Source of the DNA: a virus
Length of the DNA: 64,000 bases
Reading direction: 5' to 3' (one strand)
Virus record (IMG/VR): IMGVR_UViG_3300030497_000001
Shown: in pieces, positions 3,677 to 50,346 of the stretch
Position numbering within the stretch: position 1 is the first letter of the stretch
Layout: each line of letters starts with the position of its first letter
Position numbers and translations under genes: made by a program
Notes under the pieces: model-generated
The model's input: only the letters and a program-made list of their open reading frames with translations
What the model was told of the DNA's origin: nothing
Databases searched by the model: none

Positions 3677-3705
3677 AAAGACATCAAATGAAAGGGAGAG
3701 ATAAT

Positions 3706-7429: not shown

Positions 7430-7436
7430 AAAATGT

Positions 7437-9693: not shown

Positions 9694-10068
9694 ATGAACT
9701 TAATGAGTATTATTCCGAATCTAAAAATCCGTAAGGTGAAAGAAACGCCAAAGAAGAAGGTTGAAAAGAAGCAGAGCAAACAGTTGAGCTTTAACTTTGA
9801 ACAAGAACCTCATGAGAAGGTAATGGAAAATCTTACAGAGCGACAAAAGATGGTGTATCAATATTTAAAATCAACTTATGTTGATGGGGCGACTGCAAAA
9901 GAATTATCTGTAGCATTATTCAAAGAAGGATTAACTCCTTCACCAGAGCGTAATAGTACGCATCCACGATTAAATGAATTAGTAGACTTAGGTCTTGTTA
10001 AAGTAATTGGCAAAAAAGACTGTCAATTTACAGGACGAAAAGTTACTATTTACAAAAGCAAATTATAA
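9694..10068 (+). CDS. winged-helix (MarR-like) DNA-binding protein
   Basis: LTERQKMVYQYLK..GATAKELS...HPRLNELVDLGLVKVIG...GRKVTIY is a typical wHTH layout. Confidence 0.55.
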   Translation: MNLMSIIPNLKIRKVKETPKKKVEKKQSKQLSFNFEQEPHEKVMENLTERQKMVYQYLKSTYVDGATAKELSVALFKEGLTPSPERNSTHPRLNELVDLGLVKVIGKKDCQFTGRKVTIYKSKL

Positions 10069-10077
10069 TGATATAAT
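10049..10077 (+). promoter_or_regulatory. sigma-A-type promoter (TTTACA-N17-TATAAT, extended TG) inside the 3' end of the preceding CDS
   Basis: -35 at 10049-10054, spacer AAAGCAAATTATAATGA, -10 at 10072-10077. Confidence 0.6.
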
Positions 10078-10096
10078 AAAGGGGGAGCAATACATA

Positions 10097-11749: not shown

Positions 11750-11761
11750 GGAGTGTTGTGC

Positions 11762-12439
11762 ATGTACGGAATGCAAGAACCAAGTCGAAAAATTTTAATC
11801 TCTAGAGGGATTGATGAAGCATTAGCAGAAAGCGTTATCGCACAGATTGTTGAGATTAACGACCTTGATGCACAAAGAGCAGAAGCTTTAAAAGAGTACC
11901 GACCAGAACCAATTGAGATTTTCATTAACTCTGGTGGAGGAAGTGTTACCGATGGTTTTGCAATCATCGGTGCAATGGAGATGTCTGATACTCCAATCAT
12001 TACATATGCATTAGGATTAGTAGCATCTATGGCTCTAGCAATCTTTGTTGCAGGAGATGTACGAATTGCTCACCGTTATGCACGATTAATGTATCACTCA
12101 ATCTCTTACGGAATGTTAGGTCACATCACAGAGCACGAACAACAAATGAAAGAATGTGACCTGCTTCAACGTCAATACAACAGCTTAATGTATGACCGTA
12201 CTAAACTTACGAAAGAGAAATTAGATAGCATTCGTGCTATGAAACATGATTACTACTTCGGTGCAAGAGAAGCTGTGAAGCTTGGTGTTGCTCATGACTA
12301 CATGAAAAAACCAGAACAGCTTGAAGTAATGTTGCAAGAAGAAGCAGAGGTGCAAGAAGCTATGAAAGTAATTGAAGAAAGAGTAGCTAGTGCAGAGCAA
12401 AAGATTACACCAGATTCAATTATCAATAAAAAAGCATAA
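11762..12439 (+). CDS. ClpP-family (S14) serine protease, copy 2, with acidic C-terminal extension
   Basis: Ser in LVASMA, His in RLMYHSI, Asp in KHDYYFGAREAVKLGVA. ATG at 11762 lies 8 nt after AAGGAG; the GTG at 11753 is too close to the RBS. Confidence 0.8.
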   Translation: MYGMQEPSRKILISRGIDEALAESVIAQIVEINDLDAQRAEALKEYRPEPIEIFINSGGGSVTDGFAIIGAMEMSDTPIITYALGLVASMALAIFVAGDVRIAHRYARLMYHSISYGMLGHITEHEQQMKECDLLQRQYNSLMYDRTKLTKEKLDSIRAMKHDYYFGAREAVKLGVAHDYMKKPEQLEVMLQEEAEVQEAMKVIEERVASAEQKITPDSIINKKA

Positions 12440-14833: not shown

Positions 14834-17800
14834 ATGGAAAACTACGTAGTATATCATCTACACAGTCATATTAGTAATTTAACAGCAGGACAAGGTGCTG
14901 ACAGCGTAACAAAATATGAAGCATATATTAAGAGAGCGAAAGAATTAGGAATGAACGCTATGGCTTTCTCTGAACATGGCAGTGTCATGAACTGGATTAA
15001 GAAGAAGCAGTTGATGGAGAAAAGCGATGGCGATTTACAAGGAATGAAATACATACATGCAAACGAGGTATACTTAACTCGAAAGATTGAACAGGAAATG
15101 GTTGAGGATAAGGAAACAGGATTGTTAATCCCATCTGGAAAACTCAATCTTGAACGTGACAACTATCACTACATGTTGCTTGCAAAGAACTTTGATGGTG
15201 TCCAAGAATTGAATCAATTAACATCTGATTCATTCAGTAAAGAAGATGGGCATTTCTACTACAACCCACGTATCACATTTGATGAGTTAAAGAATACCTC
15301 TGACAATATCTTAATGACATCTGCATGTCTTGCATCTCCATTATGGAAGATGTATAAGAAGTCACAGAATGAATTTGGTCAAACAATCAATCAAGAGCTT
15401 AAAGTTGAACTTGAAGAGATGTTGCACTGGATGGGTCAAAATAGACATCGTATGTTTTTAGAAATCCAATACCATTCTCATCCAGAGCAAGTTGAGTTTA
15501 ACCGTATGTTACTGCAACTGTCGAAAGACTTAAAAATCCCATTAATAGCAGGTACGGATACTCACTCTCTTGACCAAGAACATGCAGAGCTTCGTAAAAT
15601 CTTCTTAGATTCTAAGGATGCAAGTTATGGTAACGAAGACGACTTTGACTTGACATTCAAAGATTATGCAGGTGTTGTTGAGATGTTTGAACAACAAGGA
15701 GCACTTCCACGTAATGTGTACCTTGAAGCAATACATAATACAAATGTCATGGCAGATATGGTTGAGGAATTTACGTTAGACAAAACTCCAAAATATCCAA
15801 AGATGTATGACAATCCAATTGAGGTATTCCAGAAACAAATCAATGAAGGTGTAGTGAAGCGTGGAATCAATAAATTCCCTGCTGAAAAGAAAAAAGAATA
15901 CTTTGCACGCATTAAAGAAGAGTTTGATACATATGTTAAATTAGATGCGGTTGATTATATGCTATTGCAGAAGAACATCATTGATTGGTGTCATAAGAAT
16001 GACATATATCAAGGATATGGTCGTGGGTCTGTAAACGGTAGTTTAATAGCATATATTCTAGGGATTACAGAAATGGACTCTATAAAGCATAATCTGAACT
16101 TCTTCCGATTCTTAAATCCAGACCGCATCTCTTTACCAGATATTGACATTGACTTTCCGCCATCACGAAGACAAGAAGTAATTGACTACGTGGCAAGTTT
16201 GGAAGGCGTAGACTTTGCAGAGATTATCACTTTCAATACGAAAGCATTGAAGGGGTCAATTCGTATCGTTGGTAAAGGATTGGGAATGCCTTTAGATGTC
16301 GTAGATACTATAGCCAAAGCTGTAGAAGAATTTGAGAATAAGCAAAGAATAGATGAGAAATGGAAGAAGATGTATCCAGAACTGTTTAAGTATGTTGATT
16401 TGATGTGCGGTGTAATCGAATCAATGGGCAGTCATCCCTCTGGATATGTTGTGTCACCAATTGACCTGTCAACTAATGTTTCAACAGTGTATACGAAAGA
16501 AAGTAAATATCGTGTAACTGCTGTAAACATGAAAGAGCTTGACGGTGAAAACTATGTAAAACTTGATATCCTTGGTTTGGCGAACATTGAGCTTATCAAT
16601 GACACATGCAAATTAGCAGGCATTGAGCGTTTAACGCCAGACAACATTGATATCAAAGATATGGATGTGTGGAAATCTCTTCGTGAATCAACTCTTGGTG
16701 TCTTCCAGTTTGAATCCGATTCTGCTTATGCATATCTTAAACAGCTATTCAGCGATGAGACTCTTGACTACATCAAGACCAACATTGGTGACGTTGACTA
16801 CATCGACCTACTATCAATGGCAAATGGAGCAATCCGACCATCTGGTAACTCATATCGTTATGAACTAGCACAAGGTATAGCCAAGGATAATGGTCACCCT
16901 GCTTTGAATGAAGCACTTAAACCAACATTAGGCTACCTTATCTTCCAAGAGCAAATCATGAAATTCTTAACAGACTTCTGTGACCATACAGGTGCAGAAT
17001 CCGATACAGTAAGACGTGGACTTGCGAAGAAGGAAGGTACAGAGCAATACTTGCCTAAAATCCATGACGGTTTCATTTCTTATATGGGTGAAAAATATGG
17101 TGAATCAGCAGAGCATTCAGAAGAGATTCTGCAATCATTCCTGCAAGTAATCAATGATGCATCTCGTTACGGTTTCTCTACGAATCACTCACAACCATAT
17201 TCTTACATTGGCTATATTGGAGCTTATCTAAGATATCATTATCCATTAGAGTTTATGACGACAATCTTAAACATCCAAGATGATGACAAAGATAAAACGA
17301 CAAAGATTGTCAACTACGCTAAGAAGAAGGATATCGAAATAAAGTCAATTGAGTTTGGTAAGTCAAGAGCTTCTTACACGTTGAATCGTGAAGAACAAAA
17401 CGTCTACAAAGGCATTGCTTCAATCAAATTCCTTAACCGTAAAGTTGCTGATGAGCTGTATGAATTGGCACATGCCAAGGATTATGACCGTAATGATTGG
17501 GTGGGATTGTTAGTCGATATCTTTAAGACATCTGCCGACACTCGACAAATGGAGATTCTAATCCGATTAGACTTCTTCAAAGAGTTTGGAGACAAAGAGG
17601 TACTGCTTGAAATTTATCTTGCTATGGCAGATAAAAAGAAAGCCAATACTGAATTATATCCAGAGTTTGCAGATAAAGAGATTGTCGAAACAAAAGTCAA
17701 TAAGAAAACTGGTGAGACAACGTATAAGCCTAAGACAATCAAACGTCCTCTTAAATTCACAAATGATTTAAAAGAGAACACACAGCTTATACGTCTGGAA

Positions 17801-18208
17801 AACCTTCGTGCCTACGAGAAAGCTGTACGTGAGAACCCACCTGCTAAGATTGAACTTTACGAACAGATTGCATTTGAGAAAGACAATTTAGGTTATGCAG
17901 TTTCCACATGGCATAATGTAAATGGTGCGTTTGCTTTAGTCATTGACATCAACAAGAAGTACACACCTAAAGTGACACTTTATCAAATCAAGACAGGTAA
18001 AGAGATAGTAGTTAAAGTATCTAAGAAGAAATTCTTCTCTGAATACGATGACTTGCTGTATGTGGGAGATATCATCAAGGTGGTAGAGACAGAAGAGAAA
18101 AACGGATGGAGAAATGTGGACGGTAAATGGGTCGAAGACACATCTAAGCAGGAGCTATGGCTAGAACTAGCAGAGCTAATCCGTAAGAGCAATAAACGTA
18201 GTGCATAA
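14834..18208 (+). CDS. dnaE: DNA polymerase III alpha subunit (DnaE-type, PHP domain)
   Basis: PHP motifs HLHSH and SEHG. Polymerase core GRGSVNGSLIAYILGIT, PDIDIDF, KLDILGL. 1124 aa. Confidence 0.9.
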   Translation: MENYVVYHLHSHISNLTAGQGADSVTKYEAYIKRAKELGMNAMAFSEHGSVMNWIKKKQLMEKSDGDLQGMKYIHANEVYLTRKIEQEMVEDKETGLLIPSGKLNLERDNYHYMLLAKNFDGVQELNQLTSDSFSKEDGHFYYNPRITFDELKNTSDNILMTSACLASPLWKMYKKSQNEFGQTINQELKVELEEMLHWMGQNRHRMFLEIQYHSHPEQVEFNRMLLQLSKDLKIPLIAGTDTHSLDQEHAELRKIFLDSKDASYGNEDDFDLTFKDYAGVVEMFEQQGALPRNVYLEAIHNTNVMADMVEEFTLDKTPKYPKMYDNPIEVFQKQINEGVVKRGINKFPAEKKKEYFARIKEEFDTYVKLDAVDYMLLQKNIIDWCHKNDIYQGYGRGSVNGSLIAYILGITEMDSIKHNLNFFRFLNPDRISLPDIDIDFPPSRRQEVIDYVASLEGVDFAEIITFNTKALKGSIRIVGKGLGMPLDVVDTIAKAVEEFENKQRIDEKWKKMYPELFKYVDLMCGVIESMGSHPSGYVVSPIDLSTNVSTVYTKESKYRVTAVNMKELDGENYVKLDILGLANIELINDTCKLAGIERLTPDNIDIKDMDVWKSLRESTLGVFQFESDSAYAYLKQLFSDETLDYIKTNIGDVDYIDLLSMANGAIRPSGNSYRYELAQGIAKDNGHPALNEALKPTLGYLIFQEQIMKFLTDFCDHTGAESDTVRRGLAKKEGTEQYLPKIHDGFISYMGEKYGESAEHSEEILQSFLQVINDASRYGFSTNHSQPYSYIGYIGAYLRYHYPLEFMTTILNIQDDDKDKTTKIVNYAKKKDIEIKSIEFGKSRASYTLNREEQNVYKGIASIKFLNRKVADELYELAHAKDYDRNDWVGLLVDIFKTSADTRQMEILIRLDFFKEFGDKEVLLEIYLAMADKKKANTELYPEFADKEIVETKVNKKTGETTYKPKTIKRPLKFTNDLKENTQLIRLENLRAYEKAVRENPPAKIELYEQIAFEKDNLGYAVSTWHNVNGAFALVIDINKKYTPKVTLYQIKTGKEIVVKVSKKKFFSEYDDLLYVGDIIKVVETEEKNGWRNVDGKWVEDTSKQELWLELAELIRKSNKRSA

Positions 18209-18473: not shown

Positions 18474-18502
18474 TTTACAAGAGTAAAAAATAATGATATA
18501 AT
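18474..18502 (+). promoter_or_regulatory. sigma-A-type promoter (TTTACA-N17-TATAAT, extended TG)
   Basis: -35 at 18474-18479, spacer AGAGTAAAAAATAATGA, -10 at 18497-18502. Confidence 0.65.
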
Positions 18503-18529
18503 GAAAACAAGTTAAAGGAATGAAAGATT

Positions 18530-19108
18530 TTGAGTAACAAGAAATACCTATGGGGCTTAGACATTAGCCTTCGTAATACAGGATTAGCGATTTATGATTT
18601 AGAAGAAGAGAAGTTTGTGCATGTGGATAGCTTCTTAACAGAGAAGATTTATGCAACAAAGCAATATAAGGGCTACAACCTACACGCATTGAAGCTTAAA
18701 AAGATTACTGAATGGATTAAAGAGATGTATCTTAAATATCCACCAGAGATTGTAGCAATGGAACAAATCATTAGTAAGAAGAAAAAGACTGCAAGTGGAT
18801 TCGCATTTGCACAGCACAATGATATCATTGCACTTTCTAAGGTGCATGGAGTAATTCAATGTATGTTATGGAAAATTCCACAGGAGATTTATTCTCCAAC
18901 AGAAATCAAGAAATATGTTGTCAAAGGTAACGCAACAAAAGACTTAGTACAAGATGTCTTGAAATTGCGATTCCCATACATAAAGTTCTTAGATGATGAC
19001 CAATCAGATGCAGTTGCAGTAGCGGTCACTTATCTAGTTAAGAATGGTCTTCTTGAATGGAAGAAGCCATTGATTAAAGATGTGATGAAAAATAAGAGGG
19101 GAGAATGA
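18530..19108 (+). CDS. ruvC: RuvC-like Holliday junction resolvase
   Basis: N-terminal LWGLDISLRNTGLAIYD (catalytic Asp), central VAMEQ, C-terminal DQSDAVAVAV. TTG start. Confidence 0.75.
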   Translation: MSNKKYLWGLDISLRNTGLAIYDLEEEKFVHVDSFLTEKIYATKQYKGYNLHALKLKKITEWIKEMYLKYPPEIVAMEQIISKKKKTASGFAFAQHNDIIALSKVHGVIQCMLWKIPQEIYSPTEIKKYVVKGNATKDLVQDVLKLRFPYIKFLDDDQSDAVAVAVTYLVKNGLLEWKKPLIKDVMKNKRGE

Positions 19109-33093: not shown

Positions 33094-33110
33094 TCTTTTC
33101 TCACAATTTA

Positions 33111-33139
33111 ATTATATCATTACTATTGACTTTTGTCAA
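33111..33139 (-). promoter_or_regulatory. consensus sigma-A promoter (TTGACA-N17-TATAAT, extended TG) inside the tail fibre cluster
   Basis: Minus-strand TTGACA at 33139-33134, spacer AAAGTCAATAGTAATGA, TATAAT at 33116-33111. Confidence 0.65.
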
Positions 33140-33162
33140 AAAATGCGTTATGATAATACTAA

Positions 33163-38974: not shown

Positions 38975-41900
38975 CTAACGACCCTTCTTCTTCATACCTT
39001 TCATGATTTCGCCTGCGATAGCATCCGCTTTCTTCTTATCTCCACCTTCAACTGTTACATTGATGTCTCCATAAGATACGTTCACAATACTACCTGCTGT
39101 TGCAAGTTTACTGCTGATAGAGTTTCCGCTTAATGCAGGGATAACGTCTTTAACTTTTTCCATAATTTTAACTGCATCTAAAATATCTGATGTTTGGTTT
39201 TTGTTTAAGACAAGTTCTTTCTTATGTAGTAAAGCTAGTGCTCCTTCATTTGGCACATTATCACCAGTGTAACCACCAGTATCAAATGCCTTAATGTATT
39301 TCTTGTTTGCGTAACCTGTAGTTGTTCCTCTGTTATTAGAGAACTTAACTTTCCACCAATCTCCATCTTCACCTAAGATTTGTACGTTTGCACCATTTAA
39401 GATACGTCTTACTACTCCACCCTGTAAGTTTGGAGCGTTACGGATGTTTAAGTAGCTATCTGCTGTTACACCAGTTACGTTACCCTTAGTAGGCATTTGT
39501 GGTTGTGGTGTAGGTGGTTGTGGTTTTGTTGGTGGTGGTGGCTCTGGTGCAGGCTTCATTGGTCTTGCAGGGTCATCTGGGCGAAGAACCTCATTCTCAA
39601 ATGTTTGATAGCCTTTTGCTTTAAGAAGCTCATCCACGTTGTTCATTGGCTCTTTAGAGTTAAAGTCCATGTTGTCAACAACTAAGCCATTTGCTTCCGC
39701 AACTTGTTTCTTAGTTTCGTCAGAGAATCCACCGAATCCAGATGATAAACCATCAAAGATTCCTTTATTCATGTTGTCGATGTTTTGCTTCATTTTCGCT
39801 AACTCATCGGCAAGCTTTTTAAAGCTACCTTCGATAAATTGATTACGCATGTCTGCCCAATATTTATCGTTGTTTAATAAGTCATCGTATTGTTTAGTTA
39901 CGTCTTCTTTTTGTTTGTCAAGGTCACCGATTTTACCATCTAGTTCTTCTTGCTCTGTTTTCTTTTTGTTTTCGATTTCGTCTAGCTGTGCTTGTTTTTG
40001 GTCTTCAAGAGCTTGCTTCATTAATTCACGTTGACGTTCTTTTTGATATTCCGCTAGTTCTTTATCGACATCTGCTAGTTCCTTTTTAAGTTCCGCAAGT
40101 TTTTTCTTACCTTCAAGTGAATTATCTCTTGATAAAATGCTGATTTTATTTTGTAGTTCTGAACGTTTTGCATTCTTTTCGTCTAATCCTTTTTGGTAAT
40201 CTTCGTTTTCCTTCTCTTTGTCCATTTCTTTAAACTTAGCATCGTACACCTTGTTAATCTTGTCGATTTCCTTGTCGTACAGCTTCATCTTTTCGTCATG
40301 AGCTTTTTGAAGGTTGTTTTGTTCTTTTTCGATTGCATCTAATGCCATGTCCTTCATCTTACCGTAGTAATCTTTCAATTGACCAATACCATCATCTGCC
40401 ACGCTTGCACGTGTATCTTTAATCTCTTTTTCAGCTTGCAGAACTGCTAGAGTTGAATCCTCCCAAGCTTCTTTAACCTTGTCTACTTCCGCTCTGATAT
40501 CTTTGGCAACTTGGCTATCCTTACCGAATCTATCTTCTGCTTCATATAGTTTCAACATTAAATCTCTTTGTTGGTTCTCTAACTTAGCTCTTTCTTGTTT
40601 TAATTGATTTGCTTTATCAATATAAAGGTTCATCATTTTTGTCATGTTATCTGGGTCTACTAATTTAGCAACCTCAATCGCAAAGTCGATGTCATCTACT
40701 TTAGCTTTAATCTCTTCTAATCCTTTAGTATACTGTTCAACAATAGCTTCTACGTGAGCTTTTAAGATTTCCGCATAACGGTTTTCCCAATTGTCTAAGA
40801 AGTCTTGCCATTCAGCTCTCATACTTTGGATTGAGCTTAGATTGCTTTCGTATTCTTGCATTAACTTATTGTATTGGTCACGTTGCTCTTTTGTATGAGC
40901 GTTGATGTTTTTCAGACCTTCTAGTTCACGTTTGATTTGTTCGTTTCTACGTTCTTTATCCCATAGGTCGTGATTTAATAGTTCCCAACGTTTAATTTCA
41001 ACTTGGTATACATCGTTCATCATCTTGCGATATTCTGCTGTATACTTGTTCATGTTTTTCATTTTTGTTTCCATCCACTTGATTGTTACATCAAGCTCAC
41101 TCATGCTACGTTGCCATGAGTTCCAAGGCATTGCATCCGCTAACTTATCGCTATCATCTGCACTAGATTTGACTTTAGTATCTGAATAGAATGATTCTTT
41201 TACCCAACTTCCATCTTCTGTTTGGACGTATCCTTTTTTTCTTCTGTTAGGGTCAGTTCTATCATTTTCTGCAAAACTATCATCATAGCTACCTAAAGCA
41301 GTGAATACTCCCATTCTACCGTAAGAATCTAATCCACTGTAGATTGAAGGGATAAGTCTACCAGACGTACCGCTACCTCCACCTGCTGTTCCAGAATCAC
41401 CAGAACTTGCACTGAAAGCACCTGCCGCACTTGCTACTGCACTTGCTACCTCTCCACCTTGTAGTCCTGTAATGTTATTGATTGTAGACATATTCCAAGA
41501 TGCACCTGTTGGTAATGCAGGTAATGTTGGAGCTTTAACTTGAACGCTAGAAGCCTGTTGTGCTTTTGCGATATAGTTGTTTAGACTTGACATCGCACCT
41601 GCGATTGTGCTATTTAAACCTTGTACAGCAGATTTAGCTTGGTTAGCTGAATCCTTAACTTTGTTTAAAGCACTAGCTTGCGAATTGTGAGCACTGTTCA
41701 TAGCACCTGTAGAACTTGCAACTGCTCCTGCCATAGCACTGAATGCACCTCTAACAACATTCGCAATTGCCATTGTTCCTGTACCAAGAGATAATACTGC
41801 TTGTAAGTAAGTTTGGATTGCTTGAATGATTGATGAGATTGAGCTAATTGCAGATTGTGCCATTGAGCCATAAGCTTGTGACATTTGTTGCGTTGCATTG

Positions 41901-44900
41901 ATAGCTTGCATAATTGCATTAGCTTCTGCTTGTTTAGCGTTCGCATTAGCACTACTTGCTTGTGCCGAAGTGTTAGAAGCGTTAGCTTCATTTGATTTAG
42001 CATTAGCATTAGCACTTGATGCATCTGCTGATGCTCTAGAAGCATCTGATGCTTGGTTCATACCGACAGCAGATAAACTTGCTGAATTACCAAGTTGTTG
42101 CATCGCTTGACTAGCTGTTCCAGAAGCATTAGATATAGTGAATAATGCAACGCCAAATGACTCTGCTCCACTTACACCGCTTCCGAAGTTGTTGCTTAAT
42201 GTTGAAATAGCATTACCTACTTCTCCTGCTTTGCCAACTGTGTTACCCATAGCGTTTTGCAGTTCGCCTTGTTTAGCAATAAATGAATCAAATCCACTTA
42301 CTGTGTTTGCAATAGCTGTACCTGCATTTTGCATCGCTGTAGCTGTTTCTTGTGCTTTACCACCCATGCTACCCATTGACTGTACAACAGCATCCTGTGC
42401 TAGTTTGTATTGGTCTAATGCGTTTTTAGCGTTACCGATTGATGTAACATCTTGACCAATCTTTTGAGCACTTTGACCAGATTGAGTAGCCATACCTGCT
42501 ACTTGCTCTTGGAATAATTGTGCCTGTGTTTTAAATGGACTCATGAAGCCAGTCTGCATACCTTGACCTAATTGACCAAATGCAGTATTGATTCCACCAA
42601 CCTGTGTTTCAACTTGCGTTTTAGTTTCACCCATTGTAGTACCAACTTGGTTAAGGTTCTCTTTTAATGGTGCTAGGTTGTTTCCTGCGTTACCGATTGT
42701 AGATGTTGCTTGGCTGATTCCACCTGCTGATTCATTTGCCTTGCCTTTAGCTTCGTCAAATTTTTGTCCAACTTGGTCAGCTTGGTCTTTTACAGGACTC
42801 ATGTTTCCACCTGCGTTACCGATTCTGCCTGCACTCTGTTCAATGCTACCTGCTGATTCGCCTACTTTTTGAGCTGTTTCACCTGTCTTCTGACTAACTT
42901 CTCCAATCTTCAATCCGAATGGGTCGGCTAACGAACCTGCTAAACCGATTCTCATACCGCCTTGTTCGTATTGACCTGCCGTTAACGACATGTTATCTCC
43001 ACTTAGTTTTGCACTTTGTTGAAGTTGATTGAATGTTGTCATCAATGGATTCATGTATGTTCCAGAGTTACCAATTCTCATACCGTTAGTTTCGATACCT
43101 TGTGCACCCTTGATAGACTCTTCGGTAGTTTTTGCAAAGCCTTCTTTAATCTTGTTTAAGTTTTCGATTGTTGGAGACATGTTTATTTCTTTACCTAAAG
43201 AATTTTGAACTTTGTCAATAAATGTTTTAGCTTTGTTTCCTGTGTCATCTAACTTGTTACCAAATTCATCAAACTTGAATTTATTAGAATCAACTTTACC
43301 ACTGAAAATATCAGTAGCTTCTCCACTCTCACGCATCTTACCTACCCATGCTTCGAATGTTGCGATTTGGTCTTTCGTCATGCTACCGTAGTCCACAACT
43401 ACTTTACCGTTTTCGTCAATTTTTGTTTTTACTTGACCCATTGTGTCAGCTAGTTTATAATACTTATCAATGTTTTGTTCGATTTCGCCACGTGATACAC
43501 CGAATCTATTAGATAATTCTGTAACAGATTTACCCCATTGTTCTGTCTTTGTAGCGTTTTCACCGTACATCAATTGAGACATTTTCAAGCTTTCAAGATG
43601 ACCCTTGATTGCTGAAACTTCTTCGTTCTTATATCCATATAATGTTTTCTGTAAGTCGATAGCTTCAACCATTTTTTGGTTAGCTTTACCCTGTGCATCT
43701 GCCTGTTTGTTGATAGCATCCGCACTCTTACCTGTAGCATCTGCTCCTTCACCTACAGCATCCGCATAACCTGCGTTAGCTTCTTCACCTGCACGTGCTT
43801 TTAGAGCTTGGTTTTCACTAGCCATAGCTAATTGTTGAACGAAGTCTTTAGCTTCATTTGCAGACATACCTAGCTTTTCAGCGTAAGCAACATATCCATC
43901 CCAACCTTGACTACCGTTTTGTTGAATTTCCATTCCTAGTGCCAATAACTCTTTTAACTTGCTTTGCATCTTATCAATGCTACCGCCAAAGTTTTCAATG
44001 TTCATGAATCTTTCTGGGACTGTGCTACCAATTTTACCAATAGCTTGTTTAAGTTCTTCTACTTTTTGTTTACCTTTGTTTGTGCTAGTGTCGATTCCTG
44101 CTGTCATTCTGTCGAACTCTTTAGCGAATAGCTCACCAACACCTGCTCCACCCTTTACGATGTTATCCATAGCTTTCTTAATGTTGTCTGCACCCTTGAT
44201 TGCACCAGATGCGATTTTCTCATTTAAAGAGTTTGTATTAACTTTCATGAAGTTATCCACTGCTTTTTGAGCACCGTCACCTAGTTTAGCCATAGCACCG
44301 CTTGCTTCTAAAGTTGCTCTAGCTTGCTCTGTTAATGTATGGTTAATCTTCTGGAATGCTTCTTGTCGTTTTGATGCGTTTTGAAGTTCTTTAACATCTA
44401 AGTCTAGAATCTTCTTCTTATAAGCTTCTTCACGTTCTTCTCTTGATTGAGATGCAGTAGGTCTATTACGGAACTCTTCTGCTTCTTTTCGTTTTTGAAG
44501 TAGTTTTTCTTCTGCTTCAATTAGTTTACCGATGTCTTCTGTTGCTTTGTCTAAGTTTTGGTCTTTCATTGCAACTTGCTCTCTAGCTTTAGCTTCTGAA
44601 AGTTCTTTAGACATTTGTAGAGCTTTCTTAACTTCGTCTGTGTTCTTCAACCATGCTTGACCGTTAGCATCAATGAATTTTACAGAAGTTGGTAAGATTT
44701 CAGCTAGTTTAGATTGTACGATTAAGAATTGGTCATATTCCTGCGTTCCCTTTTGGATTGCTCCACTTGCAAAGGCTTTACTCATTGCATCGTATTTCTC
44801 AACTAGACCTCCAACTGTATCCATGTTTTTACGGTATCCGTCTACCATTTTTTGCGTAGCTCTATCTACCGCTTCTTGTTCTGCTTTTAACTTAGAGAAA

Positions 44901-47900
44901 TGACCGATTACAGCTTCAATAGCCCAACCGATTGCACCGATAGCAAGACCGAATGCACCCATTGATAATACAGCTTTACCAAAGCTTAAACCGAATGATA
45001 GAACTGATTTACCTGCATTCATGAATGCTCCACCAACAGTTGTTGTTGCAGTACCAGTATTCTGCATACCGCTACGCATTCTATCCATTACTGTGATAGT
45101 AGCATTACCATCTCTTTGTACGCTTGTGAAACCTTCTTTAAACTTGCTAAAGAACCCACCGACAGCAGTTTGAATACCACCGAATTTACCCATTTGGGTC
45201 ATGATTGCACCGATAGCAACACCAACTAGAGCTAGACCTCCACCTGCATTAGCAATCTGTGTGATAACGTTTAATACCGCACCTAAACCTTGTGCTACAG
45301 CAATGATACCGTCAGACACGAATGCCTTACCGAATGCTACAGACATAGTTGTGAATGAGTTTTTCGTTTGATTGATTTTAGCTTCCATAGACTGCATATA
45401 CTTCTCGTTCTCACGCATTGCACTACCTTGTGAGTTATATGCTGTTACAGTTGCTTTAATCGCTGTTGGGTAGTTATTCATTAGGGCTAAGAAACGTGTT
45501 AAGTGGTTTCGTCCTGCTAATGTAACTGCTGTGTTCTGTCTTTGTTGAGCTGTTAAGCCACCCCAATTTGCACCTAAGTCATTTAGGATATCGCCAACAG
45601 GTCTTAGCTCTTTACCATTTTCACCCATGTCATACATTGCAACACCAACACTTTTCAGTGTTCCTTCCGATGCTTGTAAACCTGTGATACGTGAGTAAAT
45701 AGCCTTTAATGAGTTACCGATAATGTTACCAGATTCCATTGTTACCGCACCGATTGCAGTTGTATGTCCAATAGTTTCTTCCAAGCTAACTCCATATGTT
45801 TTTGCAGTAGATGCAGATTTTTGTAAACTTGTTGCTAACTGTTGCGTACTGATAGCGTAATCATTATCTACTTGGTTTAATTTATCTACGATACCGATAG
45901 AATCTTCTGCTTCAATATTGAATGCGTTCATTGTACCTACTAGAGATGCTTGTGCATCTTGTACTTTTAGGTCTGATACGTTTGACATTACTGTAGCTGT
46001 CTTAGTGATAGCTGTTAACTGTCTTTCATTGAAGTCACCGAATGTACGTGAGAACTCTTCCATACCGTTTAGGATATCATGAATATTGTTACCTAATTCT
46101 TTTGACAATCCTACTGCGTTTCCAAACATGATATCTGTGTTAAGACTTGCATCTGCAACTCTTCGAATGTTTGTCATAGCTTTGTCTACTTCTAGAATCT
46201 CTCTAGTCATAGCTTGTAAGCCTTGAATTGGAGCAGTCATCATAGCTTGACTTAGCATCCACATTGGAGCTGATGACATCATGCTACGTAGTTTTTCCCA
46301 TGCACCTAAGTTACGGTTAACGTTACGAACCATTTCGTCAGAAGCCTGTCTAACAACGTTAGTTCCTTGTGTAAATGATAGATTCATACGTCTTACGTGT
46401 TCACCTGTACCTGCAAATGTAACTTGAACGTTTTTCATTCTGTTACCCATTGCATCTACGCCATCTCTAGCGAATGATACAGAAGCTACTTTAGCACCTT
46501 CTACAGCACTAACATAACTTTTAATACTTGCAATCGTATTTGCATCTGGTGCTCCACCGCTAAATAACTTTTGGTTCATTTGTTTAATCTTGTCTGCACC
46601 ACCGTATTTGTCAGAAATATCTTCACCTAAACGAAGGTTTCTTTCTGCATTACGGATTTGTTGTTTCTTGTCTGTTAGCATTCTTTGGTATTGAGCTAAC
46701 GCACGTTCTACCTCTACAGCACTAGTATTTACATTTTTAGCGTAATTCTTTAGTGATGCATCAATGCCAGTAACATCCATTCCTCTGTCTTTCATTTGAC
46801 GTTGAACGGCTTTTAAACTCTCAATTAATCTTTGAGACTTAGCTTGCTCTGCATCCATCCAAGCATTAGTTTTCGCTTCACCAATTCTATTTCTAACAAT
46901 AGCTAATTGAGAATAAGCTTTATTCATATCATTGATTGTTGCAATGTTACGAACCATTGCCATTGTCTCATCAACGAATGCCTTTTTCGCTTGACCGTTT
47001 GGATTATTTGCAGGAGTTTGTTGTTGAAGTTTTCTTAACTCACGCTCTAATTGTAAACGTTGTTTAGTAACTTCTTGCGATGCTTTCATATCAGCATTGC
47101 CTTTTCTAACGTTTTCATTATATACTTGAACTTCTCTAGCAAGTTGTCTATAATGATTTGCCAAATCTGCAACAGCCTTACCATCTCTATCTGTGCCGTT
47201 TTTCGCCATAGATTCAAGACCTTTAAGTTGAGCATTGTTAACATCTTTAGCTCTAGCTTTACCGATGTCATTTAACAACTTAGCTTGTTGAGCTGTTAAC
47301 TTGTTTGTTTGAGAGATTTGTTGTTGTAATTGTTGTTCTGCTCTTACAGCTTCTTGAAGACCTTTAACCATGTCTCTAGTTAAGCTATCTCCTTTGCCTT
47401 TTAACGCATCGAATTGAGAAAGCAGTCCAATCTTGCCATCTGTGTTTTTAAGTTGGTTAATAGAGCCTTTAAGCTTGTTTAAAGAAGCTTCTGCTTGTGC
47501 CAGACTCTTTTGAGTGTCTGTAATAGTTTGTCTATCAATGATTTGAAACTTCTTGCTACCTGCATTCCAGTCATATCTAAGTTTCTCAACAACACCATTT
47601 GCACGTTGTAGTTCTGCAACGAAACCTTTTAGATTTCCTTGTGCATCTTTAAATTGAGTTGTTTTAAAGATACCGCCACCATCGTTAAATTTAGAACGAA
47701 GGACTCTCTCTGCATCTTCCATTTGCTTCAAATATTGTTTGATATTATTGAAGTTGCCTACAGGTGCAGAAGTAGGAACGCTCTGCTTCTGTGCAGAAGA
47801 TGCAATCTTACTTGCTTGTTGCTGTGCTTGCTTAGTTTGTTGCACATATTTTTTATTCATATCGTTGAAAGCTTTATACATATCCTGTATTTGCTTTGTA

Positions 47901-48148
47901 GTGCCTTTTGTATCAAGCTCTACTTTCAACTTCATTGGTTTGTTTTTTACTAAATTATTGATACTAGTAATCTGCTTGTTGATATCTTTTGTATCTAGTT
48001 TAACTTTAAGTTTTACTGGATTACCTGCTAACATCTTGCTAATAGCATTTACCTGTGAAGGCAACTTACTACCTTTTGCATCAAGCTCTACCTTTAACTT
48101 CACCACTTGGGCTTTCAGTATCATATTTAAATCGTTACTACCTGCCAA
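38975..48148 (-). CDS. tail tape measure protein (3057 aa) with C-terminal Pro-rich linker + SH3b-like domain
   Basis: TP901-type TMP core (..MTNIRRVADAS.., hydrophobic Gly/Ala-rich TM-like segments), long coiled coils and repeat arrays. TTG start 7 nt after GGGGTGA. Confidence 0.9.
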   Translation of the reverse strand: MAGSNDLNMILKAQVVKLKVELDAKGSKLPSQVNAISKMLAGNPVKLKVKLDTKDINKQITSINNLVKNKPMKLKVELDTKGTTKQIQDMYKAFNDMNKKYVQQTKQAQQQASKIASSAQKQSVPTSAPVGNFNNIKQYLKQMEDAERVLRSKFNDGGGIFKTTQFKDAQGNLKGFVAELQRANGVVEKLRYDWNAGSKKFQIIDRQTITDTQKSLAQAEASLNKLKGSINQLKNTDGKIGLLSQFDALKGKGDSLTRDMVKGLQEAVRAEQQLQQQISQTNKLTAQQAKLLNDIGKARAKDVNNAQLKGLESMAKNGTDRDGKAVADLANHYRQLAREVQVYNENVRKGNADMKASQEVTKQRLQLERELRKLQQQTPANNPNGQAKKAFVDETMAMVRNIATINDMNKAYSQLAIVRNRIGEAKTNAWMDAEQAKSQRLIESLKAVQRQMKDRGMDVTGIDASLKNYAKNVNTSAVEVERALAQYQRMLTDKKQQIRNAERNLRLGEDISDKYGGADKIKQMNQKLFSGGAPDANTIASIKSYVSAVEGAKVASVSFARDGVDAMGNRMKNVQVTFAGTGEHVRRMNLSFTQGTNVVRQASDEMVRNVNRNLGAWEKLRSMMSSAPMWMLSQAMMTAPIQGLQAMTREILEVDKAMTNIRRVADASLNTDIMFGNAVGLSKELGNNIHDILNGMEEFSRTFGDFNERQLTAITKTATVMSNVSDLKVQDAQASLVGTMNAFNIEAEDSIGIVDKLNQVDNDYAISTQQLATSLQKSASTAKTYGVSLEETIGHTTAIGAVTMESGNIIGNSLKAIYSRITGLQASEGTLKSVGVAMYDMGENGKELRPVGDILNDLGANWGGLTAQQRQNTAVTLAGRNHLTRFLALMNNYPTAIKATVTAYNSQGSAMRENEKYMQSMEAKINQTKNSFTTMSVAFGKAFVSDGIIAVAQGLGAVLNVITQIANAGGGLALVGVAIGAIMTQMGKFGGIQTAVGGFFSKFKEGFTSVQRDGNATITVMDRMRSGMQNTGTATTTVGGAFMNAGKSVLSFGLSFGKAVLSMGAFGLAIGAIGWAIEAVIGHFSKLKAEQEAVDRATQKMVDGYRKNMDTVGGLVEKYDAMSKAFASGAIQKGTQEYDQFLIVQSKLAEILPTSVKFIDANGQAWLKNTDEVKKALQMSKELSEAKAREQVAMKDQNLDKATEDIGKLIEAEEKLLQKRKEAEEFRNRPTASQSREEREEAYKKKILDLDVKELQNASKRQEAFQKINHTLTEQARATLEASGAMAKLGDGAQKAVDNFMKVNTNSLNEKIASGAIKGADNIKKAMDNIVKGGAGVGELFAKEFDRMTAGIDTSTNKGKQKVEELKQAIGKIGSTVPERFMNIENFGGSIDKMQSKLKELLALGMEIQQNGSQGWDGYVAYAEKLGMSANEAKDFVQQLAMASENQALKARAGEEANAGYADAVGEGADATGKSADAINKQADAQGKANQKMVEAIDLQKTLYGYKNEEVSAIKGHLESLKMSQLMYGENATKTEQWGKSVTELSNRFGVSRGEIEQNIDKYYKLADTMGQVKTKIDENGKVVVDYGSMTKDQIATFEAWVGKMRESGEATDIFSGKVDSNKFKFDEFGNKLDDTGNKAKTFIDKVQNSLGKEINMSPTIENLNKIKEGFAKTTEESIKGAQGIETNGMRIGNSGTYMNPLMTTFNQLQQSAKLSGDNMSLTAGQYEQGGMRIGLAGSLADPFGLKIGEVSQKTGETAQKVGESAGSIEQSAGRIGNAGGNMSPVKDQADQVGQKFDEAKGKANESAGGISQATSTIGNAGNNLAPLKENLNQVGTTMGETKTQVETQVGGINTAFGQLGQGMQTGFMSPFKTQAQLFQEQVAGMATQSGQSAQKIGQDVTSIGNAKNALDQYKLAQDAVVQSMGSMGGKAQETATAMQNAGTAIANTVSGFDSFIAKQGELQNAMGNTVGKAGEVGNAISTLSNNFGSGVSGAESFGVALFTISNASGTASQAMQQLGNSASLSAVGMNQASDASRASADASSANANAKSNEANASNTSAQASSANANAKQAEANAIMQAINATQQMSQAYGSMAQSAISSISSIIQAIQTYLQAVLSLGTGTMAIANVVRGAFSAMAGAVASSTGAMNSAHNSQASALNKVKDSANQAKSAVQGLNSTIAGAMSSLNNYIAKAQQASSVQVKAPTLPALPTGASWNMSTINNITGLQGGEVASAVASAAGAFSASSGDSGTAGGGSGTSGRLIPSIYSGLDSYGRMGVFTALGSYDDSFAENDRTDPNRRKKGYVQTEDGSWVKESFYSDTKVKSSADDSDKLADAMPWNSWQRSMSELDVTIKWMETKMKNMNKYTAEYRKMMNDVYQVEIKRWELLNHDLWDKERRNEQIKRELEGLKNINAHTKEQRDQYNKLMQEYESNLSSIQSMRAEWQDFLDNWENRYAEILKAHVEAIVEQYTKGLEEIKAKVDDIDFAIEVAKLVDPDNMTKMMNLYIDKANQLKQERAKLENQQRDLMLKLYEAEDRFGKDSQVAKDIRAEVDKVKEAWEDSTLAVLQAEKEIKDTRASVADDGIGQLKDYYGKMKDMALDAIEKEQNNLQKAHDEKMKLYDKEIDKINKVYDAKFKEMDKEKENEDYQKGLDEKNAKRSELQNKISILSRDNSLEGKKKLAELKKELADVDKELAEYQKERQRELMKQALEDQKQAQLDEIENKKKTEQEELDGKIGDLDKQKEDVTKQYDDLLNNDKYWADMRNQFIEGSFKKLADELAKMKQNIDNMNKGIFDGLSSGFGGFSDETKKQVAEANGLVVDNMDFNSKEPMNNVDELLKAKGYQTFENEVLRPDDPARPMKPAPEPPPPTKPQPPTPQPQMPTKGNVTGVTADSYLNIRNAPNLQGGVVRRILNGANVQILGEDGDWWKVKFSNNRGTTTGYANKKYIKAFDTGGYTGDNVPNEGALALLHKKELVLNKNQTSDILDAVKIMEKVKDVIPALSGNSISSKLATAGSIVNVSYGDINVTVEGGDKKKADAIAGEIMKGMKKKGR
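42400..43100 (-). repeat. array of about 5 degenerate ~40-aa repeats inside the TMP (x-IGNAG-x-N-x-x-P-x-K...Q-x-G)
   Basis: RIGNSGTYMNPL, RIGLAGSLADPF, RIGNAGGNMSPVK, TIGNAGNNLAPLK, SIGNAKNALDQYK. Boundaries are approximate. Confidence 0.6.
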
Positions 48149-48171
48149 ATTGTTTCACCCCTTGTTATTCT

Positions 48172-48224
48172 AGAGGATGCTGTAACATCCTAATCAGAAG
48201 ATTAAGATGTTACTCTTAATCTTC
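48172..48224. repeat. cluster of three overlapping inverted repeats including a 28-bp 11-6-11 palindrome
   Basis: IR1: GAAGATTAAGA-TGTTAC-TCTTAATCTTC (48197-48224). IR2: GTAACATCCTAATC / GATTAAGATGTTAC (48182-48195 / 48200-48213). IR3: AGGATG / CATCCT (48174-48179 / 48186-48191). Confidence 0.9.
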
Positions 48225-49202
48225 CTAATATAAATCGTCATCATCGTCATCGTCATCACGAACGACATATATCTCTGTTGTTGAAACATCGTTGTGTCCC
48301 AACATTTCTTGTACCTTTTTGATATCTATACCTTCCTCAACAACTGCTATAGTTGCTCTACTTGAACGTAATAAGTGAGGATGGATTTTCTTGCCGATGA
48401 TTTCACCGAACTCTTCACACCATAGATTGAAAGCGTTTCCGCTAATCTGTCTATATCCATCTTTTGTTTTACTAACAAATAGATATGGACAATCATCTTC
48501 GCCACGTACTTCTATCCACTTTCTAAGTGCATCCATTACTTCTTGACTAAATTTGAATTTACGAACTTTTCCTTCTATGCCTTTACCTTTTGCTCTAATA
48601 GCATGAGTTTGGTAATATTCTTTCTGGATGCCTTTCTTATTAACAAATTTATCGTAAGTTACAACTTCTTTTAATAATTGTCTTGACTCTTCCCTACGAC
48701 ATCCTGTACCATATGTATATAAGAGATAAGCTAGTTTCTGCCATTCCTCTTTTTTCTTCAAAGTCTTGATGAGCTTTTCAAGCTCAATCTTCGTAATTGG
48801 ATTCTTCTCTTTTTTCTTCACATTTGCCACGTTAGGAACTGCCTTATTGAAAATGTTTTTTAATTTTGGATATTCTTCACCATAATATAATTCTATGAAA
48901 TTGTATAAAGAACTAACAGATGAACGCTTGAATTTAATAGCAGAACTACTCAACCCTAATTTTATTAGGTCGTTCTGATAATCTAATCCATCACGTATCT
49001 TTAAATCTGTGATTCTCTTTCTACCTCTATATTTATCATGTGCCCATTTGCAAAAGATACGTAGAGATGATTTGTATTGTTTTAGAGTTGCAGGACTTAG
49101 ATGACCCTGTTTAAGAAAGCTTTCAACTATCTCTCTATCATCTATGTCAAATTCATTATCCCAAAACTCATCTGTAACTTCTTGTATTTTTTTGTATGCC
49201 AT
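48225..49202 (-). CDS. tyrosine recombinase (XerC/D / phage integrase family) with poly-Asp C-terminal tail
   Basis: Catalytic pattern: R in GTGCRREE, K in IRAKGKG, HPHLLRSSRAT (H-x-x-R), LGHNDVSTTEIY (H/W...Y). N-terminal SAM-like core-binding domain. Ends RDDDDDDDDLY. ATG at 49202 is preferred over the GTG at 49211. Confidence 0.85.
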   Translation of the reverse strand: MAYKKIQEVTDEFWDNEFDIDDREIVESFLKQGHLSPATLKQYKSSLRIFCKWAHDKYRGRKRITDLKIRDGLDYQNDLIKLGLSSSAIKFKRSSVSSLYNFIELYYGEEYPKLKNIFNKAVPNVANVKKKEKNPITKIELEKLIKTLKKKEEWQKLAYLLYTYGTGCRREESRQLLKEVVTYDKFVNKKGIQKEYYQTHAIRAKGKGIEGKVRKFKFSQEVMDALRKWIEVRGEDDCPYLFVSKTKDGYRQISGNAFNLWCEEFGEIIGKKIHPHLLRSSRATIAVVEEGIDIKKVQEMLGHNDVSTTEIYVVRDDDDDDDDLY

Positions 49203-49217
49203 ATATTTCACCTACTT

Positions 49218-49700
49218 CTATTTATAAGCTTGACCGCTCCATTGGATATCTAAGAATACTTTTTTATTTCTAACGTTGTTGTACTCTGATTGAACTTGAC
49301 CTAGATAGTCGAATCCACCTTTGTATGTAAAATTTGGAACTACTCCAATTCTGTTTTCCAATTTCTTAGAGTGCCAACCGCTACTAATAAGCATGATTGA
49401 GTGACCTTTTGGCTGTCCTTTGCCAAATACTGAATCATGATACATTAGACCGTTTTCGAATGTAAGTTCGATTGTATAAGTATTCACACCAACTTTTCTT
49501 ACTGGTTTAAGCTTTATACCCTTTTCTGAACGTCCAGTACGAACGTACATTTGAGGTTGATAGCTACCCAAGTATCTTCTCCATACTTTGAGTGCTATCG
49601 CTTTTAATTTTTTTCCCTCTGCATTTAAGACTCTAATAGCTTCCGCTTCTGTCTCAAAGTAAAAACCATTACTCTTGCTCTGTGATTGCTTCTTCGCCAT
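49218..49700 (-). CDS. basic protein of unknown function (possible chaperone T-like extension or independent tail protein)
   Basis: ORF overlaps the 3' end of the chaperone gene by 32 nt, in the +1 frame. Its ATG is immediately preceded in frame by TAG. Confidence 0.55.
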   Translation of the reverse strand: MAKKQSQSKSNGFYFETEAEAIRVLNAEGKKLKAIALKVWRRYLGSYQPQMYVRTGRSEKGIKLKPVRKVGVNTYTIELTFENGLMYHDSVFGKGQPKGHSIMLISSGWHSKKLENRIGVVPNFTYKGGFDYLGQVQSEYNNVRNKKVFLDIQWSGQAYK

Positions 49701-50190
49701 CTATAAACATCTTCTTAACTACTTCGTTCTCTAGCTGTTCTGCAACTAGGTCTGCTTCGGCTTGTGCGATTTCCATCTTTTCAGTCATTTCGTTAAGCAC
49801 ATTTCTCAATTTGTCATATGTCTGAATAACTTCTTTTTCTGGAAGTTCATTTAAGACCGCTTCGAAAATTCCAAGGTCGATTAAAGAATGTAGATGTGCG
49901 ATAGCATCATCGAAATCATCTGGAATCTCTAAGTCTGTGAAATGCTTGATTAATAGTAAAGACGTATAAGGCGTAGCAAGTTCTAGTAATTCAATACGTT
50001 TACCGCCCTCTTGGAAGAATGCAATCATATCATCTAAAACTTTACCTTGTTTAGAAGTACGGAACACCTCATCAATTTTCACTTCGTAGACATCATCACC
50101 AATTGAAACATATGCTTCGAATTGCTTATTTAATTTTTCATCCTGTTTTTTCAACTCATCAAGAGTTAATTTTTTAATATCCTTAGTCAC
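49669..50190 (-). CDS. tail assembly chaperone (gpG-like)
   Basis: Acidic 173-aa protein encoded between the major tail gene and the TMP. GTG start 8 nt after AAGGAG. Confidence 0.55.
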   Translation of the reverse strand: MTKDIKKLTLDELKKQDEKLNKQFEAYVSIGDDVYEVKIDEVFRTSKQGKVLDDMIAFFQEGGKRIELLELATPYTSLLLIKHFTDLEIPDDFDDAIAHLHSLIDLGIFEAVLNELPEKEVIQTYDKLRNVLNEMTEKMEIAQAEADLVAEQLENEVVKKMFIDGEEAITEQE

Positions 50191-50260: not shown

Positions 50261-50289
50261 ATTATAACATATACTTGATAAAACTTCAA
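50261..50289 (-). promoter_or_regulatory. sigma-A-type promoter (TTGAAG-N17-TATAAT, extended TG)
   Basis: Minus-strand TTGAAG at 50289-50284 and TATAAT at 50266-50261, preceded by TGT. Confidence 0.5.
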
Positions 50290-50308: not shown

Positions 50309-50346
50309 CCAAAAAAAATAGGGCAGAGAATCATGTTCTCTACCCT
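50309..50346 (-). terminator. strong rho-independent terminator after the major tail gene
   Basis: Minus-strand AGGGTAGAGAA-CATGA-TTCTCTGCCCT (11 bp, one G-U) followed by ATTTTTTTT. Confidence 0.8.

Follow-up and report, generated by a model that had tools for sequence, protein, structure and literature searches.

What does an intact tyrosine recombinase gene do among the virion genes of a large phage? The question is raised by a 64,000-nucleotide stretch of viral DNA (IMG/VR record IMGVR_UViG_3300030497_000001; this whole stretch is called the window below), in which such a gene lies directly before the tape measure gene. To judge from its sequence, the gene encodes a genuine, catalytically competent tyrosine recombinase of the simple two-domain Xer/Cre type. 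It is a vertically inherited core gene of large (about 80–170 kb) siphoviruses of Firmicutes, and its product is probably not a lysogeny integrase. The explanation that we put first, at slightly less than an even chance, is that the recombinase is made late and works on the phage's own DNA during lytic growth. The recombinase of the tail operon has already been published, and two of the papers concerned noted its odd location among the tail genes; added here are the arguments against readings as an integrase with an adjacent phage attachment site (attP) and a family-wide view.

The gene and its catalytic residues are located as follows.

48225..49202, minus strand: coding sequence of the tyrosine recombinase, 325 amino acids, with the stop codon at 48225-48227 (open reading frame list with translation, Pfam).
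48267..48698, minus strand: span of the catalytic residues (alignments A1, A2 and A4).
48696-48698, minus strand: R169, with R169/R170 lying within TGCRRE.
48567-48569, minus strand: K212, the catalytic Lys.
48375-48377 and 48366-48368, minus strand: H276 and R279, forming H276-x-x-R279 within HPHLLR.
48294-48296 and 48267-48269, minus strand: H303 and Y312, the latter being the nucleophile.

The open reading frame (ORF) spans 48225..49211 (minus strand) if a GTG start is used and 48225..49202 with an ATG start. We take the ATG at 49202 as the real start because it is preceded, 5 nucleotides (nt) upstream, by the Shine-Dalgarno sequence AGGTGA and because all homologues begin with MA(Y)KKI. 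The product belongs to the Phage_integrase family of Pfam by its catalytic domain (PF00589; E-value 1.3e-21, 77.5 bits at a cut-off of 27.1) and carries a SAM-like core-binding domain (PF02899, 6.5e-07); its PHROG call is integrase (6.7e-44). Both Pfam and the AlphaFold2 model (mean predicted local distance difference test score, pLDDT, of 82) comprise the core-binding and catalytic domains only, and an N-terminal arm-binding domain is absent from both. The residues R169, K212, H276, R279, H303 and Y312 are invariant in alignments A2 and A4 and, save for R279, also in A1, and the catalytic residues are unchanged across 34 homologues. The initial annotation of this locus, made from the sequence alone, had described a full-length and catalytically complete member of the Xer/integrase family, and the Pfam domains and the full set of catalytic residues bear it out. 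In the clade of SPbeta and Staphylococcus phages, Lys replaces the Arg of the H-x-x-R motif (YomM at L003 5956-6957; L007 3965-4981), with the other catalytic residues retained.

Among known tyrosine recombinases, the best full-length matches are XerC, XerD, XerA, XerS and XerH, which have the same domain layout; with profile models, the resemblance extends over the full length for XerA (3.3e-29) and XerC (9.8e-27). The scores nevertheless fall below the equivalog cut-offs of NCBIfam for XerA (102 vs 220), XerC (94 vs 335), XerD (81 vs 330) and XerS (56 vs 267). Unlike the Xer proteins, the window enzyme is phage-borne and single, no dif-type partner site has been identified for it and no link to FtsK is known. 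By sequence and fold together, its nearest counterparts are XerA, Tn1549 Int, IntI, Cre and XerH, with Foldseek giving template modelling scores of 0.52–0.54 and an E-value of about 1e-8 for the comparison with Cre. The lambda-type integrases have the catalytic domain and chemistry in common with the window enzyme, whereas the arm-binding domain, an adjacent excisionase or repressor and a position at the prophage boundary are all absent in the window family.

The genes and signals around the recombinase that bear on its expression are listed below.

38975..48148, minus strand: tape measure protein gene, 3057 amino acids, TTG start (annotated thus in Kirov and Thrax).
49218..49700, minus strand: virion structural protein, 160 amino acids (phrog_7299, 5.7e-55; a neck or tail completion protein in published annotations).
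49669..50190, minus strand: 173-amino acid protein of phrog_7383, the counterpart of SPbeta YomO (precomputed YomO family match on the L113 orthologue).
50261-50289, minus strand: promoter-like site TTGAAG-17-TG-TATAAT with an extended -10 element (consensus match only).
50320-50346, minus strand: hairpin and T-run resembling a terminator, 3' of the major tail protein gene (consensus match only).

The stop codon of the upstream gene (49218-49220) is separated by 15 nt from the recombinase start, and 76 nt separate the recombinase stop codon (48225-48227) from the tape measure TTG at 48148. These spacings agree with the initial annotation, as does the placement of the recombinase in the direction of the tail genes and immediately before the tape measure gene according to the ORF list. 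The upstream tail chaperone region that it proposed has to be given up: the genes in question encode a virion structural protein and a phrog_7383 protein, not demonstrated chaperones. The genes of the 173- and 160-amino acid proteins share a 32-nt overlap (49669-49700, minus strand), and no terminator was found between the recombinase and the upstream structural gene. Because of this missing terminator and the promoter-like site at 50261-50289 before the three-gene block, the recombinase is probably co-expressed with the virion genes, as had been suspected from the outset, and its expression would then be late. The same features suggest that the genes of the 173- and 160-amino acid proteins, the recombinase and the tape measure protein form a transcription unit of their own; promoter-like matches in general are no more numerous than expected from shuffled sequence. 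There is no lysogeny module in the 64-kb window, and neither an excisionase nor a repressor adjoins the recombinase, whose neighbours encode virion proteins and the tape measure protein, again as first described.

Kirov, BcoS-136, SPbeta (yomO with the gene that follows it) and a B. velezensis prophage have the same overlapping pair of small genes 5' of the recombinase. TTG is the start codon of the tape measure gene not only in the window but also in Kirov, Tsamsa and Nate, whereas FADO, pW2 and others have ATG at this place. Among the proteins of this module, the only solved structure on record is that of the tail tube protein of the SPbeta group; none was found for YomM, YomO, YomN or the 160- and 173-amino acid proteins of the window.

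Sequence comparison identifies the window as part of a large Bacillus Tyrovirus resembling Kirov and Thrax1. The 20 kb around the recombinase are 91% identical in DNA to Bacillus phage Kirov and 82% identical to Thrax1/Thrax3; at the protein level, the recombinase is 95% identical to that of Thrax1/Thrax3 and 91% identical to that of Kirov, and a recombinase of identical sequence is on record in contigs of up to 172 kb. The orthologues are Thrax gp50, Tsamsa gp227, Izhevsk ORF208 and Kirov ORF46 (PMC3903500, PMC7685451, PMC9703825, PMC10454425), which have the same neighbours as the window gene, the same 76-nt gap and the same downstream palindrome. Tsamsa was reported in 2014 to encode three unrelated recombinases of the Cre/XerD type, gp227 among them (PMC3903500), and in 2022 the Tyrovirus group was named for its three recombinases (PMC9703825). 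In the latter study, gp50 was flanked by a 'neck protein' on one side and the tape measure protein on the other; the authors termed the location 'especially curious', noted the same placement in Perkons and the lactococcal 949 phages and left the function open (PMC9703825). For Kirov, ORF46 was listed in 2023 (PMC10454425).

Beyond the Tyroviruses, relatives of the recombinase amount to 315 in IMG/VR and 1199 protein clusters at E <= 1e-10. The order of two small genes, recombinase and tape measure gene is found in Tsamsa, FADO, BcoS-136, the lactococcal phage phiL47 and an SPbeta-like staphylococcal phage. Both phiL47 orf167 (59% identity) and SPbeta YomM (32–33%) are homologues that follow two small genes and precede the tape measure gene. 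They differ from the window gene in that the gap to the tape measure gene is only 17 nt long and lacks the palindrome in phiL47, while SPbeta has the Lys in place of the HxxR Arg and three inserted genes between yomM and the tape measure gene yomI, the order being otherwise the same. Among more distant relatives, those of Enterococcus phage Planchet and Lactobacillus phage Lenus (~26% identity) follow the holin and endolysin genes at the end of the late genes. In Clostridia prophages, the recombinase lies between tail-fibre-sized genes and a lysin; in other relatives from Clostridia, it lies between a repair exonuclease gene and a block of phrog_3314, large terminase and portal genes, and the window carries the same phrog_3314 and terminase families as this block. 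The constant feature of the recombinase family is thus its association with the late region and not its adjacency to the tape measure gene: the recombinase is away from that gene in the Clostridia, Enterococcus and Lactobacillus relatives, which argues for a link to late genes rather than to the tail.

Within the tail module, the recombinase is the best-conserved protein. Compared with phiL47, its identity is 59%, against 47% for the major tail protein and 28–37% for the other module proteins; compared with SPbeta and the staphylococcal phage, the recombinase is recovered at an E-value of about 1e-45, whereas the tail tube protein is undetectable or marginal. This degree of conservation disfavours both a selfish insertion and the view that the gene is a decaying relic of temperate life without present function, either of which we consider very improbable. 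The authors who described Planchet, a lytic relative, did read its recombinase as the trace of an 'ex-temperate phage' (PMC11210271), and one prophage copy is truncated to 219 amino acids. Against such a loss of function stand the conserved position and orientation across genera, the invariance of the catalytic residues in the 34 homologues and the rank of the recombinase as the most conserved protein of the module. The initial annotation had likewise considered a selfish or unusual insertion, a view that does not survive the conservation of the arrangement from Bacillus Tyroviruses to the 949 group, SPbeta (yomM) and SPbeta-like staphylococcal phages. The truncated copy, in Bacillus sp. Bva_UNVM-123 (L093 9986-10645), is followed by several extra genes before the tape measure gene and may be decaying.

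Conservation above that of the structural proteins, together with the invariable place in the tail block by the tape measure gene in the Bacilli clade and the conserved acidic tail with its terminal aromatic residue (described below), could also be taken to mean that the enzyme is associated with the virion. Such a protein would be a late product, either packaged or attached by its acidic end to the tail or tape measure complex, and would enter the next cell with the DNA and act there at once; alternatively, it would moonlight in tail assembly. The type IB topoisomerase of poxviruses, which is made late and packaged, offers an analogy. We regard this possibility as improbable: relatives from Clostridia, Enterococcus and Lactobacillus phages do not lie beside the tape measure gene, and the strictly kept catalytic residues point to enzymology rather than a structural role. 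No proteomic evidence for it was found either, as the literature on phiL47, the 949 group, Kirov, Izhevsk and Planchet yielded no usable virion proteomics or functional data for homologues. For yomM in connection with B. subtilis, the literature search returned no mention.

The family name invites the reading that the recombinase is the phage integrase, with its attachment site immediately downstream, and this site has a published candidate.

48197..48224, minus strand: P1, a perfect 11-6-11 palindrome, GAAGATTAAGA-GTAACA-TCTTAATCTTC, starting at the base after the recombinase stop codon; the published putative attP.

The inverted repeat right after the gp50 stop codon was reported as a putative attP (PMC9703825), and integration there would split the recombinase from the tape measure gene. 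P1 is unique in the window, where none is expected by chance. The palindrome is perfect, adjoins the gene and has a dif-like 11-6-11 geometry (PMC9703825); Tsamsa was induced from B. anthracis samples and called temperate (PMC3903500), and a Tyrovirus-like element does reside within a B. velezensis chromosome. This last element is also an argument to the contrary. Its recombinase, a 61% identical orthologue, is located at 0.91–0.94 Mb of the 4.14-Mb B. velezensis record CP061938.1, which was examined over +/-10 kb around the gene. The gene order there is that of the window, the palindrome is intact and a 3091-amino acid tape measure gene follows after 73 nt. Because both the junction and the palindrome are intact, the stretch after the recombinase is not the attP used in CP061938.1; nor does the recombinase mark an end of the prophage, since it has phage structural genes on either side for about 10 kb. 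A scan of bacterial genomes with a narrow alignment gave 16 recombinase loci. On those contigs that far exceed a phage in size, from Thermoactinomyces (349 kb), Lysinibacillus (560 kb), Terribacillus (1.0 Mb) and Halobacillus (264 kb), the recombinase likewise keeps its link to the tape measure gene, with at most a few small genes in between.

Other comparisons point the same way. The spacer of the palindrome is not constant in length even where the enzymes are identical or nearly so: FADO has AAATACA and PK-3 has AATACA, a difference of 1 nt, although their recombinases are 100% identical, and L013 has CAACACA where L017 has CAACA, a difference of 2 nt, with recombinases 96.4% identical. The palindrome is absent from the 949 group, SPbeta and many other relatives, and the arm-binding domain and a nearby excisionase are missing from a gene that sits within a virion-gene operon. 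SPbeta integrates by SprA. Perkons encodes an orthologue of the recombinase, ORF195, yet integrates via a serine integrase (PMC13245101). On this evidence, we consider an integrase acting on the downstream palindrome to be quite unlikely. The initial annotation had allowed that a classical lysogeny module elsewhere in the genome would make the gene a displaced integrase. Such genes do exist in part, as two further tyrosine recombinases and ParM/ParG-like partition genes are encoded elsewhere in these genomes (PMC9703825, PMC7685451); the recombinase of the tail operon is not thereby a displaced integrase.

These partition functions are relevant to a different prophage-stage role, in which the recombinase would be a Cre/loxP-like multimer resolvase that acts at the downstream palindrome and keeps a plasmid prophage of ~165 kb monomeric. 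FADO-like elements are recorded as plasmids of 162 and 166 kb, which supports the plasmid-prophage state proposed in the literature, and a relative is located on a 210-kb C. botulinum plasmid, while the Tyrovirus genomes encode ParM/ParG-like functions (PMC7685451, PMC10454425). Like Cre of phage P1, the window enzyme has a simple two-domain Cre/Xer-type architecture and a similar size, its candidate site adjoins the gene as loxP adjoins cre, and a plasmid prophage is possible. It differs from the Cre/loxP system in showing no significant sequence similarity, in the 11-6-11 rather than 13-8-13 geometry of the candidate site, in the variable spacer and in the location of the gene in a virion operon, which should be silent in the prophage. 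A more natural resolvase is gp19, the recombinase that lies beside the partition genes in Tyroviruses (PMC9703825). Moreover, the recombinase is conserved in the 949 group, Planchet and Lenus, which are lytic, and in the integrating SPbeta, whereas the palindrome is restricted to the Tyrovirus clade, where its spacer length varies. We hold plasmid resolution to be unlikely, if somewhat less so than chromosomal integration.

In the preferred explanation, the enzyme is an active, site-specific recombinase that would be produced together with the virion proteins and, late in the lytic cycle, would work on phage DNA that has replicated. The reaction might be a Cre-like monomerisation or cyclisation, or some other preparation of the DNA for packaging. 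The presence of the recombinase in phages isolated and used as lytic agents, namely the 949 group, Planchet and Lenus, is consistent with such a role. Several observations weigh against it. The window has no second copy of the palindrome, even with three mismatches allowed, so that no recombination site was found, and the 285-bp terminal repeat of Thrax1 contains no lox-like inverted repeat that could be a target. A palindrome adjoining a recombinase gene has the appearance of Cre/loxP, and the occurrence of Tyroviruses as plasmids of roughly 162–166 kb makes a role at the prophage stage possible. Finally, the phage has a junction resolvase of its own, so the recombinase would be dispensable for general debranching.

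18530-19108, plus strand: RuvC-like Holliday junction resolvase gene, directly after the gene of a 1124-amino acid DNA polymerase (14834-18208).

For this reason, a general role of the recombinase in debranching or resolving junctions is unlikely. The location in the tail region and a weak match to the model of a tyrosine-type invertase (34 bits vs a cut-off of 221) might also suggest an enzyme that inverts, and thereby switches, a tail fibre or host-range segment of the DNA. The window contains no long inverted repeats around any tail segment, the inverted pairs found being only promoter-like or weak, and there is no further copy of the palindrome, which leaves this the least probable of the explanations considered. 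A protelomerase of the TelN/TelK/ResT type was ruled out by the size of 325 amino acids, the Xer layout and the palindrome centre GTAACA, which is not self-complementary.

P1 also allows another reading. The region between the recombinase and the tape measure gene contains the following additional elements, which we compared among 15–16 distinct Tyrovirus sequences.

48182..48213, minus strand: P2, a 14-bp helix of GTAACATCTTAATC with GATTAGGATGTTAC, in which 48200-48213 pairs with 48182-48195.
48175..48190, minus strand: P3, the hairpin GGATG-TTACAG-CATCC, an alternative fold whose 3' strand can pair with the tape measure Shine-Dalgarno sequence instead.
48156..48161, minus strand: GGGGTG, the Shine-Dalgarno sequence of the tape measure gene (from the sequence; RNAalifold pairs it with region 4).

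The helix P2 is mutually exclusive with both P1 and P3. The RNAalifold consensus of the leader consists of P2 and of base pairs between the CATCC region and the Shine-Dalgarno sequence of the tape measure gene, and P2 is present in the minimum-free-energy fold of 13 of the 15 leader sequences; in the window, the alternative of P1 plus P3 lies only 0.5 kcal/mol above the P2 fold. Across 15 sequences, 94.8% of the P2 cells are paired and three pairs are changed on both sides, and departures in the core of 11 pairs comprise 18 G.U cells vs 3 others. In P3, GGATG/CATCC is swapped for GGGTG/CACCC in relatives. The relative L015 has a degenerate 5' arm of P1 and retains P2. A covariance model of the element matches in the Tyrovirus clade only, each time directly after the stop codon; in phages of the 949 group, the position is occupied by just 17 nt without the palindrome, and several other relatives have ordinary terminator hairpins there. 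Rfam gave no family at the gathering score in the window or the leader and otherwise chance-level matches.

On these sequence comparisons, the palindrome is more likely one arm of alternative helices in a structured mRNA leader than an attP, because a crossover region should hold its length under an unchanged enzyme and a hairpin loop can vary. The leader (48149-48227, minus strand) may be a translational control element for the tape measure gene. Certain results count against a function at the RNA level: the fold z-scores of the leader are alike on the two strands (-3.8 and -3.4), the predicted masking of the tape measure Shine-Dalgarno sequence by the leader does not exceed that in shuffled upstream controls, and the G.U signal in P2 stems from few independent events. 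A role of the palindrome at the DNA level is therefore conceivable. In addition, Flp and some other recombinases tolerate a changed spacer length. We also tried the fold energies of the sense and antisense strands as proof of an RNA element and rejected them: the sense strand is the stabler in 15 of 15 sequences, yet base composition explains most of the gap. In Nate, Thrax2 and a metagenomic relative (L019, L107 and L110), the third leader repeat, GATTAGGAT, is tandemly duplicated; the duplication lengthens the P2 spacer and leaves the helix unbroken.

The other end of the argument concerns the C-terminus of the enzyme, where the initial annotation had seen a special feature in a run of eight Asp residues.

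48228..48266, minus strand: 13-residue acidic tail VVRDDDDDDDDLY after the catalytic Tyr, ending in RDDDDDDDDLY.

The translation agrees with that description, the eight Asp codons at 48234-48257 being GAT GAC GAT GAC GAT GAT GAC GAT, and this run (D8) is the sole one of at least six Asp among the window ORFs of at least 50 amino acids. Its singularity is lost in the wider family. Among the 120 closest clusters, the segment after the Tyr has 13 residues in 98 and ends with L-F or L-Y in 119; most of the tails contain 5–8 acidic residues, with the consensus VVRDDSDDLDDLF, and D8 occurs in only two. Tails in which a hydrophobic residue and then Phe or Tyr come after the acidic stretch are also found in phiL47, SPbeta, the staphylococcal phage and gut-phage relatives, with Phe as the last residue in phiL47 and YomM. 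D8 is therefore a lineage-specific homopolymeric variant of a family-wide 13-residue acidic tail ending in L-F/Y, and it has Asp in place of the usual Ser and Leu. Among Tyrovirus orthologues, the tail distinguishes the lineage of the window (D8) from Kirov (D4-E-D3) and Tsamsa (KSSDIDELYD), which otherwise show no difference. The GAT/GAC repeat could have arisen by slippage.

The C-terminal segments of Cre, lambda Int and XerD contact the neighbouring protomer or are auto-inhibitory. By analogy with them, the conserved terminal L-F/Y fits a role in protomer docking or auto-inhibition, and the acidic tail probably controls the assembly or activity of the recombinase complex. A regulatory or DNA-mimicking role of the acidic residues is possible from the sequence. 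In the AlphaFold2 model, residues 312–325 have pLDDT values below 50, in keeping with a disordered tail; docking of the tail on the DNA-binding surface of the recombinase itself was considered and set aside, as the model gives no confident placement.

Taken at its boldest, the preferred explanation would make the recombinase an essential lytic enzyme of the whole lineage, made late and perhaps brought into the next cell, which would carry out a site-specific DNA step such as genome cyclisation, monomerisation or preparation for packaging; the acidic tail would be its switch and, in Tyroviruses, the stop codon would be wired to a bistable mRNA leader that determines how much tape measure protein is made. 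This extended version strikes us as doubtful, more so than the late lytic role itself.

The remainder of the window has the organisation of a large phage. The terminase gene and ORFs of portal and capsid size are located at 54–63 kb and the tail genes and endolysin at 24–39 kb, while the opposite strand encodes a DNA ligase, NAD salvage enzymes, thymidylate synthase, the DNA polymerase and the RuvC-like resolvase. The NAD salvage genes encode ribose-phosphate pyrophosphokinase and nicotinamide phosphoribosyltransferase (3688-4584 and 5211-6947, plus strand), and the interval between the two genes holds a tandem pair of small ORFs whose ends are acidic (4806-5003 and 5005-5187). A gene resembling ClpP or a head maturation protease (11753-12439, plus strand) is found among the nucleotide metabolism genes of the early strand, far from the head genes. 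A promoter-like repeat of ~30 nt, TTGACAA..N..TGATATAAT, is present at 7436-7465, 10049-10080 and 18474-18506 on the plus strand and at 33107-33140 on the minus strand. It lies 5' of several genes on both strands, including one copy in the tail region before the gene of a 1429-amino acid tail protein.

For practical purposes, the identity of this recombinase matters because annotation pipelines label it 'integrase', so that the phages carrying it are flagged as temperate. The flag affects the choice of dairy and therapeutic phages, including the 949 group, Kirov and Planchet, and would change if the recombinase were shown not to be an integrase. For the biology of the family, phages of Bacillus, Lactococcus, Staphylococcus and Clostridia, be they temperate, plasmid-borne or lytic, have kept a catalytically intact recombinase in the virion operon, and its conservation above that of the tail tube protein suggests that these phages use site-specific recombination in the lytic cycle.

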